DNA from: a virus
Reading direction: 5' to 3' (one strand)
IMG/VR virus record: IMGVR_UViG_3300045988_014780
Span: 1-43,322 of that record
Length of the DNA stretch: 43,322 bases
A program made the position numbers and the translations under genes. A model generated the notes under the pieces. That model saw only the letters and a list, made by a program, of their open reading frames with translations, was not told the DNA's origin and made no database searches. Position 1 is the stretch's first letter. Every line of letters starts with the position of its first letter. Below, piece by piece: positions 35,197-39,604 of this stretch.

Positions 35197-35814
35197 ATGA
35201 CTGCATGGGATGTCTTACTCAAATGTGGAATTTGTGAATTGCCAGTTGATTTGAGAAAGGTTTGCAAAGGACTTGGAATTGGCCTTTTTTCATACAGTCA
35301 GGGGTATTCTATTATCCAAAAACTTGGGTTAGTTCATCATACCATTGGAGCCGATGGCTTTTTGTTCCAAACAGATGGCGTATCAATTGCCTTTTATAAC
35401 CAACAACAACCGTTAACACGACGGAATTTCACGATTGCACATGAAATCGGGCACTTTGCTCTGGGCCATGCGTGCATAGAAGGCGCAGTCAGGCGCGAAC
35501 CGGGAAACAAAAACGATCCCGAAGAAAAGGAGGCAAATCTTTTCAGTTCTATGTTATTGGCGCCTACTTGCGTCTTGCGCGGGATGAAGGTTGATAGCGC
35601 CTATTCTATTGAGAATTTATGTGCAATCAGTTATCAGGCAGCAAATATTAGTTGGGATAAGCTACAACGGCTTTGCGCCCTAGATGATACATACATGGCC
35701 GAACGTGGATATTCTTACTTTTTTAGATCGTCAACCGAGTGGAAAGTCTACAAGCAGTTTGAGCCATTTATTAGAAATCATCTAGCGAACCATCAAATAT
35801 CTCTTCGTCGTTGA
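35197..35814 (+). CDS. ImmA/IrrE-family metallopeptidase (anti-repressor protease)
   Basis: About 205 aa. HEIGH zinc motif within RRNFTIAHEIGHFALGH, plus EKEANLFSSMLLAP, typical of the ImmA/IrrE family. Confidence 0.85.
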   Translation: MTAWDVLLKCGICELPVDLRKVCKGLGIGLFSYSQGYSIIQKLGLVHHTIGADGFLFQTDGVSIAFYNQQQPLTRRNFTIAHEIGHFALGHACIEGAVRREPGNKNDPEEKEANLFSSMLLAPTCVLRGMKVDSAYSIENLCAISYQAANISWDKLQRLCALDDTYMAERGYSYFFRSSTEWKVYKQFEPFIRNHLANHQISLRR

Positions 35815-36169
35815 CAAATGGCATAACATCAATGACTTTTCTGAGTGCGTCCATTTGATCTTTTGTATAAGTCCGTTTAACTTTCTTTCCATCTCGCCCA
35901 ATAATAATGGCTTCTTCGAGCTCGTCTCCAGATGTGGAGGCGGGCTTTTCTTTTTGCGCACTTTCTGACTGCCCAACTAATTCTTCAAAACTCATTTTTA
36001 GGGCAGAAGCAGCCGCCATGAGTTTTCGCTTGCTTGGCTGAAAGGTACCCGTATTCCACTGCGAATATGTCGCAGAAGATATTCCGGACTTTTCATAAAA
36101 CTCTTTTTTAGAGATCCCGAGTTCTATTCTTCGCATTTCTATTTTCTTTAGAATTTTAGAAACGTCCAT
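35771..36169 (-). CDS. XRE-family HTH lysogeny repressor (ImmR/CI-like, no S24 domain)
   Basis: 132 aa. RRIELGISKKEFYEKSGISSATYSQWNTG HTH. Divergent from the cro-like gene, and its 3' end overlaps the ImmA-like gene by 44 nt. Confidence 0.8.
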   Translation of the reverse strand: MDVSKILKKIEMRRIELGISKKEFYEKSGISSATYSQWNTGTFQPSKRKLMAAASALKMSFEELVGQSESAQKEKPASTSGDELEEAIIIGRDGKKVKRTYTKDQMDALRKVIDVMPFVNDEEIFDGSLDDF

Positions 36170-36378: not shown

Positions 36379-36394
36379 TTGGGGGGTGAAATTA

Positions 36395-36589
36395 GTGGGT
36401 TTTAGAAGCGCCAGAATTCAAGCAGGTTTATCTGTGGCACAAGTGATGAAAATTTTGTCTGTTTCGGATGCAGCCGTATACCAGTGGGAAACGGGGGAAA
36501 CAACTCCAAACGCAAAAAGGCTTCCGGAAATTGCAAAACTCTACGGTGTAACTGTAGACGAGCTTCTTTCAGATCAGGGAGAAGGGTGA
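36395..36589 (+). CDS. Cro-like XRE HTH protein
   Basis: GTG 36395 lies after GGGGGG (listed start 36386). ARIQAGLSVAQVMKILSVSDAAVYQWETGETTPNAKRLPEIAKLYGVTVDELL is an HTH_3 domain. Confidence 0.75.
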   Translation: MGFRSARIQAGLSVAQVMKILSVSDAAVYQWETGETTPNAKRLPEIAKLYGVTVDELLSDQGEG

Positions 36590-36604: not shown

Positions 36605-36829
36605 ATGGACGCTACAAAGTACCTGAAAGAAAAAGAAAGACTGTCCCAGGCGCTAAACGGACAGGAAAACCTTGACGGCGCGGTAACTGCCATTACCGAC
36701 GCGCTGAAAAAGTACAACCTGAACATGATGCCTGGAACAGCCTTTGATGTGATGTGCTTTACCTTAGAGACGATTCATTTGGGCAAATACGACGCCCCAG
36801 TGCGGCCGCCCTTTTGCGGCTTGGGCTAA
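36605..36829 (+). CDS. Hypothetical protein
   Basis: ATG 36605 lies after GGGGAGGTGAGAGGA; 74 aa. Confidence 0.5.
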   Translation: MDATKYLKEKERLSQALNGQENLDGAVTAITDALKKYNLNMMPGTAFDVMCFTLETIHLGKYDAPVRPPFCGLG

Positions 36830-37071
36830 TCAGCCAGATCAGCAATAGATAACGATATTGCTCGCATTTCTGGCTCGTTTATCCCTCTAGCGTTTTTTAG
36901 GACTTCGGTATTCCAGTCTCCAAAGTCACACATGATTTTCTCAAGTTTTGTGTATGCCTCTTGGGTCATAGCAGTTTTACATTTTGGACAAGTGTATGAG
37001 TGCTTTCCGTCTTGAAACTCAACCCTAGAAACGCAGCCACATTTACACGAGATAGTCGCTTGAACAAACAT
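36826..37071 (-). CDS. Reverse-oriented zinc-ribbon protein (81 aa)
   Basis: ATG 37071 lies after GAAAGGGGGTG. CKCGC...CPKC present. It is the only - strand gene inside the + strand early operon, and it is AT-richer. Confidence 0.55.
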   Translation of the reverse strand: MFVQATISCKCGCVSRVEFQDGKHSYTCPKCKTAMTQEAYTKLEKIMCDFGDWNTEVLKNARGINEPEMRAISLSIADLAD

Positions 37072-37242
37072 ATTTTCACCCCCTTTCTCTCCCCATCCTA
37101 TCACATTCAGGGAGAAAGGACAATAAAGATGCCCCCGCCAGTGGCGGAAACACTGACGAGGGCTGCGGAGACCTATTGAACCAGCCAACAGGCCCGCGAG
37201 GTTATTATACACGCCTCCGGGTCAAATGACAAGGAGGTTTTT

Positions 37243-37542: not shown

Positions 37543-37619
37543 CAAGGATTGAGCAACCACGAACAATCCCTTTGGATACAGTATATCGCCTCCAGAGGGG
37601 AGAAATCAAGGAGGAAATC

Positions 37620-37871
37620 ATGGCGCGAACAAAACTAAGCAGGTTTTCTGTTCCCCCATGTGAACAGAGAGCGAGGATTCTTCGCTCTGCTGGAGGACGT
37701 ATGGGGTATACCGATCGGGACCTGGGAGAATTGGCTGGAATGACCCAATCTAATATCTCCATGAAACTAAGCGGAAAGCGCAAATGGTGGCTGGATGATA
37801 TTAGCGCCTTAGATAAGGTTTTGTCACTGACTGATGACGAAATAATCCGATTTGTGCGCGCAGGGAGGTAA
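37620..37871 (+). CDS. Small HTH-like protein (tentative)
   Basis: RBS AAGGAGG precedes ATG 37620. GYTDRDLGELAGMTQSNISMKLSGKR looks like an HTH. Confidence 0.45.
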   Translation: MARTKLSRFSVPPCEQRARILRSAGGRMGYTDRDLGELAGMTQSNISMKLSGKRKWWLDDISALDKVLSLTDDEIIRFVRAGR

Positions 37872-37963: not shown

Positions 37964-38134
37964 AAGTCGGAGACAAGCTGTGCCTGGAACCCACCATCCC
38001 CCACCAGCGCCTTTGTGACCGCAAGGACAGGCCCGCATCCCTGCCGGGTGGTCTCCATCAACGAACGGCACCATCATTTCACCGTGGAGTTCGATTTCCC
38101 AAGGAGGAATAACGCATGGACAAACAAGAGTTGA
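37960..38134 (+). pseudogene. Small gene apparently split by a +1 frame change at a C5 run (37998-38002)
   Basis: Frame 1 gives VKVGDKLCLEPTIP... and frame 2 gives ...[43 protein letters not shown]. Each half looks protein-like only in its own frame. Confidence 0.3.
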
Positions 38135-38826
38135 AAAATATTTTGGACAAGCACCTTAAATGGCTACGAGGCGAAAATGGCGGAAAACGGGCCGACCTGT
38201 CCAGGGCCAACCTGTCCGAGGCCGACCTGTCCAGGGCCGACCTGTCCAGGGCCAACCTGTTCGGGGCCAACCTGTTCGGGGCCAACCTGTCCGAGGCCGA
38301 CCTGTCCGAGGCCAACCTGTTCGGGGCCAACCTGTTCGGGGCCAACCTGTCCGAGGCCGACCTGTCCAGGGCCAACCTGTCCAGGGCCAACCTGTCCGAG
38401 GCCGACCTGTCCAGGGCCAACCTGTTCGGGGCCAACCTGTCCGAGGCCAACTACATTGAAAAGGCAAAAAATTTATTTTATCCCATTGCCTGCCCGGAAA
38501 TCGGCGCTTTTGTCGGCTGGAAAAAGGCAAGGGTCAAAACCGGCGGTCATGAGTGCATTGTAAAGCTGGGAATTACCGAAGATGCCGTGCGCAGTTCCGC
38601 AGCAGGCCGGAAGTGCCGCTGCTCAAAGGCAACCGTTTTGGAGATTCAGGATTTAGAGGGGAATGTATTGGAGCAGGTCGCCGTCAGTGATAGAGATGAG
38701 AACTTCCATTACATTCCCGGAACTGTGGTCTCCGTTTCGGATTTCGACGAAAACCGCTGGAACGAGTGCAGCACGGGCATCCATTTCTATATCACCCGTG
38801 AGGAAGCGGTGAGGCATATCTTATGA
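38116..38826 (+). CDS. Pentapeptide-repeat protein with a ~125-aa C-terminal globular domain
   Basis: 236 aa with 17 consecutive A(D/N)L(S/F)x units ([15 protein letters not shown]...). RBS AAGGAGGAA precedes ATG 38116. Confidence 0.9.
38191..38445 (+). repeat. Coding tandem array: 17 x 15-bp units drawn from five near-identical variants, with a 60-bp higher-order repeat
   Basis: Units gccgacctgtccagg, gccaacctgtccgag, gccaacctgttcggg, gccgacctgtccgag and gccaacctgtccagg. 38251-38310 and 38311-38370 differ only at 2 positions within the last 4 nt (cgag vs cagg). Confidence 0.95.
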
Positions 38827-39413
38827 AAAAGCTGACCCGCGAAGAGCGGCGGCGCCGGAGCCAGAGGCGGTTGCAGCTGATTACATATCTCCTGTTTCTG
38901 ATCTTGCTGCTGGCGTGGCTGGGAAGCTACCTGATTATGACGGTGGAGGCGGAACTGCCCGCTATGCACAAGCCGGAGCCCGCCACGCGGGACGGCAGCC
39001 TACCCGGCGACGATACCCCGGCCACCACTTGCTGTTATCTGACAGCAGAAAAGATCGAGGAAAACGAGAATGAGCTTATAGAAGCTGCTTTGCTGGCCCG
39101 GTCTCACAGACTGGAAGATGTGACCATCACCTTTTATTGCTGTGAAGGGCGGCCTCATATCTGCGGAACTGGGACAGGCATCACAGCGAGCGGAAGGCGT
39201 GTAACGCCCTATGTGAGCTGCGCCGTGGACCCTGATATCATCCCTCTGGGCAGCACCATCATGATCGAGTACAACGGCGAGATGGTTTATCTGAGAGCCG
39301 ATGATACCGGCCCGGCAGTCAGAGGGGACCATATTGACATTGCCGTCAAGGGGCACTCAGAAGCTTTATCCCTGGGCGTCCAGACGGCAGACATTTGGTG
39401 GTGCGAAGAATGA
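38823..39413 (+). CDS. Membrane-anchored 3D-domain (MltA/RlpA-like DPBB) cell-wall hydrolase
   Basis: 196 aa. N-terminal [52 protein letters not shown]...[20 protein letters not shown] matches the 3D domain. Confidence 0.8.
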
Positions 39414-39604
39414 ACGCACATGCGAAACGCCCAAGAGGCGAGTTAGGTCCCTGCCCAAGATGCGGCCTGTATTCCGGCCAGCGATTGGCAATCGAGGGCA
39501 ACCCGGATATGTTCCTGGTGGCCTGCGACGCCTGCGGATGGCGAACTCGGAAATTTACTGATATAAATCACGCGGTGAGAGCTTGGAATGAAGGGAGAAC
39601 ATGA
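39410..39604 (+). CDS. Lar-family restriction-alleviation-like protein (copy 2)
   Basis: ATGA overlap at 39410. GPCPRCG...VACDACGW...INHAVRAWNEG fits the Lar pattern CPxCG...CxxCG...A..AWN. Confidence 0.6.
   Translation: MNAHAKRPRGELGPCPRCGLYSGQRLAIEGNPDMFLVACDACGWRTRKFTDINHAVRAWNEGRT

Follow-up and report, generated by a model that had tools for sequence, protein, structure and literature searches.

How does a phage come to carry a gene in which one short unit is repeated, almost letter for letter, through the middle of the coding sequence, and what might the product of such a gene do? The question is raised by IMG/VR virus record IMGVR_UViG_3300045988_014780, all 43,322 nucleotides of which were analysed (hereafter the window). 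It represents an essentially complete temperate siphophage, with a host in the Oscillospiraceae of the Dysosmobacter/Oscillibacter type. The gene lies at 38116-38826 on the plus strand; it is complete, encodes 236 amino acids (aa) and a stop, and matches the Pfam families Pentapeptide and DUF5758. The reading proposed here is that it is a real and intact early gene in which a pentapeptide repeat of variable length is joined to DUF5758, and that its product is a host-directed accessory protein. Taken as a whole, this statement is given an even chance of being right. The part that concerns anatomy and repeat evolution is held with high confidence, and the part that concerns an early host-directed effector with a functional helix is tentative and rather more likely to be wrong than right.

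Structure of the gene and its product

A Shine-Dalgarno-like AGGAGG (38102-38107, plus strand), read from the sequence, is located 8 nucleotides (nt) 5' of the ATG. The 236-aa protein is on record in identical form (P0001) on two contigs, from JGI and ENA sources. It is predicted to consist of three modules: an N-terminal capping helix, a near-perfect pentapeptide beta-helix, and a DUF5758 domain attached via a linker modelled with lower confidence. The N-terminal cap (25 aa; 38116-38190, plus strand) contains a predicted helix at residues 3-18. The length of this cap is constant in close homologues, and its motif ELxxILxxHxxWL...GxRA is conserved family-wide. The repeat array (38191-38445, plus strand) comprises 17 units of 15 bp that encode pentapeptides of the form A-(D/N)-L-(S/F)-(R/E/G), equivalent to approximately 4.25 coils of the predicted fold. 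The C-terminal 126 aa (38446-38826, plus strand, stop codon included) comprise a predicted cap or linker helix (residues 112-121) and the beta-rich DUF5758 domain (residues ~123-231).

Both family assignments are well above the Pfam cut-offs. The array matches PF00805 (Pentapeptide) with 95.9 bits against a cut-off of 20.2 (E 9.3e-28, residues ~26-113), and the C-terminal domain matches PF19062 (DUF5758) with 115.2 bits against a cut-off of 26.9 (E 1.6e-33), residues 123-231 covering profile positions 2-105 of 105. A first-pass annotation of the window, made from the sequence alone, had called the product a pentapeptide-repeat protein and had proposed structure prediction as a check; both the call and the check held up. 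The full-length AlphaFold2 model, built from a 120-sequence alignment, has a mean predicted local distance difference test score (pLDDT) of 95; between residues 27 and 107 strands recur at intervals of 5 residues and would form a right-handed beta-helix. The least confident stretch of the model is the short helix at 112-121 (block pLDDT 72), and the beta-rich C-terminal domain ends in a predicted helix at 228-233. In Foldseek the whole model matches pentapeptide beta-helices only, with a probability of 1.00 to Np275, HetL, MfpA and Qnr. Nostoc Np275/276 and, at 57% identity, a designed consensus solenoid rank first, with MfpA, Qnr and AlbG ranked lower.

The same annotation had described the C-terminal domain of ~125 aa as uncharacterised. 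This needs qualification, since the domain belongs to a catalogued Pfam family, although it is correct that no function is assigned to that family. Modelled alone, the domain is predicted with confidence (pLDDT 90, predicted template modelling score 0.83). A fold search of the PDB with this model returned no usable neighbour (best E 0.73, template modelling (TM) score <0.25), and a PDB sequence search with the DUF5758 profile returned nothing at E <= 1. Across the window protein and 119 relatives, DUF5758 has nine invariant residues (C126, F132, K136, R159, S161, R168, Y199, G221 and H223) and three that are near-invariant (C167, E217 and C218), and its conserved motifs GWKK, KRSSAxxRKCR and ECxxGIHF are basic and contain Cys and His. 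A universal four-ligand zinc site formed by C126, C167, C218 and H223 is nonetheless unlikely on the alignment, because C126 is substituted in proteobacterial-type members.

The repeat array at the DNA level

Tandem Repeats Finder detected the array at 38189-38451 (period 15, 17.5 copies, score 365) as the sole strong tandem repeat in the window. Cut from 38191 in the frame of the gene, it yields 17 units of five distinct 15-mers with zero synonymous differences among them: GCCGACCTGTCCAGG (ADLSR), GCCAACCTGTCCGAG (ANLSE) and GCCAACCTGTTCGGG (ANLFG) occur five times each, and GCCGACCTGTCCGAG (ADLSE) and GCCAACCTGTCCAGG (ANLSR) once each. Differences between units are confined to nt 4 (G or A) and nt 11-15, exactly as first described. 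Alanine is always encoded by GCC, leucine always by CTG, and Asn/Asp by AAC/GAC. The degenerate pattern GCCRACCTGTYCRRG has 17 matches, all within the array, where 0.00 would be expected from 100 shuffles, and no further copy of the unit core GCC[AG]ACCTGT[CT]C was found elsewhere on either strand of the window. The 60-bp higher-order repeat noted earlier is likewise present. Its two copies (38251-38310 and 38311-38370, plus strand), each of four units and hence one helix coil, are identical except that the last unit has GAG in one and AGG in the other. Because no reading frame across the array contains a stop, four long spurious open reading frames (ORFs) span it, as had been reported: 38079-38450 and 38156-38530 on the minus strand, and 38160-38459 and 38177-38563 on the plus strand.

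The array also contains 18 GGCC sites within 265 bp (38186-38450), compared to 5.2 per kb in the remaining window, and six CCWGG sites. The density of GGCC arises because the junctions between units (a final G followed by GCC) create this tetranucleotide as a by-product. A restriction enzyme of the HaeIII type would find its sites densely packed in the array.

The uniformity of the codons extends well beyond the window. Among 427 units from 38 loci there are only 19 distinct 15-mers; alanine is GCC in 427/427 and leucine is CTG in 427/427, and the sole synonymous polymorphism is TCC/TCT. Units vary at nt 4 (A/G), nt 11 (C/T), nt 13 (G/A) and nt 14 (G/A). In the C-terminal domain of these 38 loci, third positions differ by 6% pairwise and 19 codon columns vary purely synonymously; the window's own C-terminal domain has mixed codon usage that includes GCA, GCT, AAT, TTA and TTT. 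Since the domain adjacent to the array varies synonymously and uses mixed codons, the frozen codons of the array point to homogenisation by repeated duplication and deletion rather than to codon bias. The near absence of synonymous change indicates concerted evolution or recent expansion, as the first-pass annotation had argued from the window alone.

Variation in the number of units among relatives

A protein search returned 6333 matches; an exact look-up of the protein P0054 retrieved no contig. Figures for the close family refer to the best 120 of these (71-88% identity overall), and statistics on array units (count, charge and periodicity) to the 115 of the 120 that parse cleanly. Nearly all of the 120 have the 25-aa N-terminus and the 126-aa C-terminus; they range from 201 to 296 aa, nearly all in 5-aa steps. 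The arrays contain 10-29 units drawn from the alphabet A-(D/N)-L-(S/F/Y/P)-(G/R/E/W). The commonest unit is ANLSG (GCC AAC CTG TCC GGG), and every variant is one nucleotide step away from it. In a pentapeptide repeat, residues 1 and 3 face inward and residues 2, 4 and 5 face outward (PMC10886550). Variation is therefore limited to exposed positions, the inward-facing Ala and Leu being invariant.

Unit number differs among relatives whose ends are identical, over a range of at least 17 to 27 and possibly 5 to 31 units. Protein pairs with 151/151 identical flank residues differ by clean blocks of 1-6 units and by occasional single-residue changes. Two NCBI assemblies of Dysosmobacter welbionis, in which the gene is on contigs of 2.5 and 3.6 Mb, have identical flanks with 27 and 21 units; a single 6-unit block and a single G/E change separate the two arrays. 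Members of the window's own 90%-identity cluster are 176-236 aa long (5-17 units). Ten of the 14 listed members match the window flanks at 151/151 residues, and one flank-identical member also has 17 units, in a different order. At loci that match the window at 99.1-99.6% identity over the downstream 2 kb, the array has 7, 11, 17, 22, 26 and 26 units, again with changed order. The variation in unit number is credible because it is seen in genome assemblies with long contigs, because arrays of equal length are reordered, and because cases have been published for an analogous gene in P22-like phages, discussed below.

It had been suggested that the helix would change length in steps of 5 or 20 residues. 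The 5-residue steps are observed between proteins with identical flanks, but the 20-residue steps, which correspond to a whole coil, are not favoured: unit numbers of close homologues fall in all four classes modulo 4 (32/38/17/28), and single units as well as blocks are inserted or deleted. No lag-4 autocorrelation was found along the arrays of close homologues, which argues against a conserved helix face. Both a face-specific surface pattern and a preference for whole coils were rejected on these grounds.

Several irregular loci bear on how the array is represented in databases. Contigs from IMG/VR and GTDB that start or end inside the array (L001, L008, L010, L015, L016, L019, L024-L028, L030, L033, L034 and L061) often break at an exact unit boundary with 4-8 units kept; in catalogues of gut phages, assemblies systematically break at this array. 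Since gut phage assemblies from short reads are broken or collapsed by the array, the repeat numbers given in metagenome catalogues are not to be trusted as they stand. In L039 (5887-6381) and L064 the array is in a shifted frame (PTCPG... or ARTSA... repeats) and then returns to the DUF5758 frame; L064 has a run of N in this region, and both are either frameshifted pseudogenes or mis-assemblies. The representative nearest to the window's C-terminal domain, P0121 (289 aa), has an N-terminus that by eye resembles a sporulation protein of the SpoIID/LytB type, followed by three pentapeptide units and DUF5758. It is probably a chimeric assembly through the repeat, though a genuine fusion is possible.

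Breadth of the family and its closest counterparts

An exhaustive search with the C-terminal domain recovered at least 3446 clusters at 50% identity. In 142 of the best 150 representatives at this identity, three or more pentapeptide units precede DUF5758; some arrays in the family are degenerate, and others are likewise composed of few unit types. DUF5758 also occurs alone, in proteins of 131-149 aa. The family spans phages of Firmicutes, actinobacteria, proteobacteria and cyanobacteria. GenBank phages with the domain include 152 of Mycobacterium, two of Synechococcus, and one each of Rhizobium, Ralstonia, Thiohalocapsa and human faeces. A search of the GenBank phages in INPHARED for near-identical DNA gave no match.

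The location of the gene is conserved. It lies a few small ORFs past the immunity switch in the window, in a D. welbionis prophage, in Cluster E mycobacteriophages (repressor, two tiny genes, gp59) and in a Rhizobium phage (repressor C, three small genes, repeat gene). Further family members lie among early genes and accessory genes of DNA metabolism, and the distant loci have no constant partner gene.

One close counterpart already on record is Cjw1 gp59 of the Cluster E mycobacteriophages (Kostyavirus), annotated as a 'pentapeptide repeat protein'. Like the window protein it has pentapeptide repeats followed by DUF5758, is 43-45% identical to it in the C-terminal domain, and is encoded by the third gene of an early operon beside the immunity repressor. 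Unlike the window protein, gp59 has repeats that are degenerate in both DNA and protein, a longer and dissimilar N-terminal region, and a stable copy number; the gene is 846 nt in five of six phages and 840 nt in the other, owing to a difference in the C-terminal domain. That degenerate arrays are stable and homogeneous arrays labile fits the prediction of replication slippage or unequal recombination.

A second counterpart is Orf-232 of Salmonella phages ST64T and L, known as 'PipB3' in the P22-like prophage phiSPU1. It shares an early-operon position, the N-cap motif and a near-perfect array (BLASTP against the window protein, 43% identity over 127 aa of N-cap and array, E 4e-22). Its gene is beside the anti-restriction gene ral, and unit number varies between near-identical phages: phages L and ST64T are >99.9% identical but differ by one 15-bp unit in orf232, and strains of Salmonella Pullorum have 7-27 pentapeptides (PMC6449608). 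The C-terminal domain of Orf-232, however, is unrelated to DUF5758 (hhalign probability 0.6%), and its host is Gram-negative. Its authors suggested a role as a type III effector, which is inapplicable to the window protein because the host of the latter is a Firmicute. The annotated start of ST64T orf-232 (L071, 3087-3785) yields a leader of 48 residues ahead of the N-cap motif, and an internal ATG (MNSADLSKILEEH...) aligns with the start of the window protein. For this reason the annotated start is probably too far upstream.

Beyond phages, the predicted C-terminal fold is matched in giant viruses. A Foldseek search of predicted viral structures gave E values down to 1.4e-8 and TM scores up to 0.78, with matches in Mimivirus, Klosneuvirus, Hyperionvirus, Harvfovirus, Pithovirus and phages. 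In these matches the domain is usually C-terminal, behind MORN, RING, HEAT or pentapeptide repeats, or forms a short stand-alone protein. Mimivirus L812 and L87 and the MORN- or RING-containing proteins of Klosneuvirus, Hyperionvirus and Harvfovirus would thus share a DUF5758-like C-terminal fold with the window protein, but they are only 14-33% identical in sequence, their scaffolds are mostly MORN, RING or HEAT, and their hosts are eukaryotes.

Neither pentapeptide repeat proteins nor DUF5758 are new, and genes with variable numbers of pentapeptides have already been described in P22-like prophages. In the literature searched on phage pentapeptide proteins there are only passing annotations, except for the reports on P22-like orf232/pipB3. 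The novelty lies in four points: a near-perfect array of variable copy number is joined to DUF5758; gut phages whose flanks are identical vary in unit number on a large scale; orthologues with degenerate repeats are, by contrast, stable; and the predicted C-terminal fold has no solved relative yet appears to occur in giant viruses.

Interpretation and alternatives

A mechanism consistent with these results can be proposed. The array acts as a variable-number tandem repeat inside a coding sequence, with whole 15-bp units gained, lost and reshuffled, and replication slippage or unequal recombination would drive this turnover and keep the codons homogeneous by concerted evolution. The protein would be made right after the lytic switch, would stay in the cytoplasm and may act on a host component in takeover or counter-defence. 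DUF5758 would be the working end, its conserved basic surface with Cys and His residues likely serving as the functional head. The beta-helix would provide a stiff support that varies in length and surface, and its exact geometry would be either unimportant or in the course of diversification.

Several points weigh against this proposal. No annotated homologue has a function, and no paper in the literature searched mentions DUF5758 or PF19062. The grounds for a counter-defence role are the position of the gene and its accessory-gene neighbourhood only. About 14 of about 40 close loci from IMG/VR and GTDB are contigs that stop inside the array, from which it follows that short-read assemblers struggle there. 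Much of the spread in copy number stems from short-read metagenome assemblies, and short alleles that keep only terminal units resemble the expected product of assembly collapse, so that some of the apparent variation is inflated. Of six possible exposed non-synonymous transitions, four are common, versus one of the six synonymous ones; because the site counts are too small to reach significance, this comparison is only suggestive of positive selection on exposed residues. Relaxed constraint together with a high indel rate could explain the same variation, and the data are compatible with both diversifying selection and relaxed constraint.

It is possible, but unlikely, that the beta-helix is a neutral spacer, that is, a tolerated and unstable linker or solubility tag ahead of DUF5758 whose variation, produced by slippage and assembly error, has no consequence. 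Consistent with a spacer, the close homologues have anywhere from ~10 to 29 units with no favoured number and no clear preference for whole coils, helix faces lack both periodicity at lag 4 and conservation, and all unit variants are single-nucleotide neighbours of the master unit ANLSG. The stand-alone DUF5758 proteins and the loci that break inside the array fit this explanation as well. A spacer without consequence fits less well, however, with the retention of N-cap, pentapeptide array and DUF5758 in 142 of the 150 representatives, from phages of at least three bacterial phyla, and with the joining of other repeat scaffolds to the DUF5758 fold in giant viruses. Moreover, the degenerate arrays of Cluster E are held at a fixed length, which argues for purifying selection on the folded helix.

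The first-pass annotation had favoured a protein of 'DNA-mimic type' directed at gyrase or restriction enzymes. As a Qnr-, MfpA- or AlbG-like mimic, the protein would bind gyrase or act as a decoy for DNA-binding defence enzymes such as restriction endonucleases. This explanation did not fare well and is judged improbable. The predicted fold is identical in kind to that of MfpA, Qnr and AlbG, the right-handed quadrilateral beta-helix formed by A(D/N)LXX repeats that McbG shares; the window array is mildly acidic (net charge -6), the gene is in an early operon together with Lar-like and Gam-like genes, and the analogous gene of P22-like phages directly follows ral. The window protein nevertheless falls far below the cut-offs of the NCBIfam hidden Markov models, scoring 35.7 versus 240 bits for Qnr, 26.5 versus 360 for MfpA, and 23-34 versus 425-500 for the Qnr subfamilies. 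The net charge of the array in the 115 homologues ranges from -13 to +5 (mean -3.1, or -0.16 per unit), unlike a conserved anionic surface, and the several-fold variation in length comes with no conservation of any helix face. Qnr and MfpA typically have a C-terminal dimerisation helix, and some Qnr proteins have loops (PMC10886550). In the window protein the protruding loops are absent, as the array is uninterrupted, and the coil is predicted to end in a cap helix and a globular domain of 110 aa rather than in a dimerising helix. The closest structural matches are not gyrase-protecting proteins but cyanobacterial Np275/Np276 and the synthetic consensus 'Beta1' solenoids (PDB 2j8i, 2j8k and 4ycq), which are solenoids alone, with neither DUF5758 nor a phage context; the window array is essentially a consensus pentapeptide solenoid. 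The genes for Qnr, MfpA, AlbG and McbG have degenerate DNA and a fixed length. These tests lower the claim of a Qnr/MfpA-type mimic specifically, and an interaction of another kind with a DNA-binding protein is compatible with them.

That the 15-bp repeats serve primarily as DNA, as iterons or protein-binding sites for replication, packaging or recombination with a secondary coding frame, is hardly credible: there are 17 direct repeats open in every frame, GGCC is dense, and phage origins may lie inside genes (as in lambda O), but the variation obeys a protein logic, with inward Ala and Leu codons invariant, only exposed residues changing and indels that are nearly always whole units in frame (the exceptions being the two assemblies L039 and L064), distant orthologues retain the pentapeptide protein with fully degenerate DNA repeats, and a likelier origin-like repeat is located in the DUF6291 gene at 41996-42060.

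A more far-reaching version of the proposed host-directed role can also be formulated, and it is regarded as a distinctly long shot. On the phage side, the array might serve as a hypervariable surface for recognition or evasion, in which unit turnover re-tiles the faces of the helix and lets an immediate-early effector track or escape host immune proteins, with DUF5758 as an unrecognised effector fold carried on interchangeable scaffolds in phages and giant viruses. If this were true, the surface could be regarded as the tandem-repeat equivalent of a diversity-generating retroelement or of an immune receptor made of repeats. The array itself was rejected as the target of a diversity-generating retroelement, since its variation is not adenine-specific and neither strand of the window has a second copy of the unit, although the search for a reverse transcriptase was not exhaustive. 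If the variation is both real and functional, the gene would be a contingency-type phage locus in which the dimensions and surface chemistry of the protein shift while the rest of it stays constant. Cjw1 gp59 and the analogous orf232 of P22-like phages belong to genetically tractable systems, in which the function of DUF5758 is directly testable.

Genomic context

The lysogeny region of the window includes an integrase gene (32059-33084, minus strand) and, on the lysogeny side of the switch, a divergent repressor-like gene with an HTH_3 domain (35771-36169, minus strand). The rightward early genes, to which the repeat gene belongs, are headed by a Cro-like helix-turn-helix (HTH) gene (36386-36589, plus strand; Pfam HTH_3, E 1.3e-11), and a second HTH gene (37572-37871) precedes the repeat gene. 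The stop of the repeat gene overlaps (ATGA) the start of a 3D-domain gene with an N-terminal transmembrane segment (38823-39413, plus strand; Pfam 3D, E 1.9e-9). A Lar-like zinc-ribbon gene follows (39395-39604, plus strand); it matches PHROG 599 (E 6.6e-6) but is below the Pfam threshold (25.3 versus 28.6 bits). Past it are a Gam-like Sipho_Gp157 gene and a gene of a PHROG annotated as exonuclease. The early position first proposed for the repeat gene is therefore supported, but the Lar-like gene, thought to be the next one downstream, is the second, after the 3D-domain gene. The anti-restriction role that had been drawn from this neighbour is not supported, as the Lar-like gene is not adjacent, does not reach the Pfam threshold and is absent from the loci of most relatives. 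In searches with PADLOC, no family was matched at E <= 0.01 by the whole protein, its C-terminal domain or the 3D-domain neighbour.

The 3D-domain gene trails the repeat gene in nearly all close loci that reach far enough and in L066. It was considered as an obligatory partner and rejected, since none of the distant loci has it. When phages with >99% identity over the downstream 2 kb are compared, no segment is more diverged than this gene (85-92% nucleotide identity). Since the 3D-domain gene is also strongly diverged, a local hot spot of divergence spans both it and the repeat gene.

Other features of the window

Within ORF 41747-42370, the DUF6291 gene, two adjacent tandem repeats are found at 41996-42060 (AAAACCCAAA, 4.3 copies, and AAACCG, 4.2 copies). 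In the related D. welbionis prophage the DUF6291 gene is immediately 5' of a DnaB-type helicase gene. These repeats could be origin iterons inside a replication-initiator-like gene. A 128-aa ORF (36826-37212, minus strand) runs against the direction of the early genes. It shows weak similarity of the zinc-ribbon/YdjO type, is accompanied by terminator-like hairpins and by its own near-consensus promoter-like site (37232-37204, 11/12 matches), and resembles a moron that has been inserted among the early genes. Finally, a short AT-rich tandem repeat (AACCATTTTTA, 3.7 copies) is present at 29646-29686, between structural or lysis genes.

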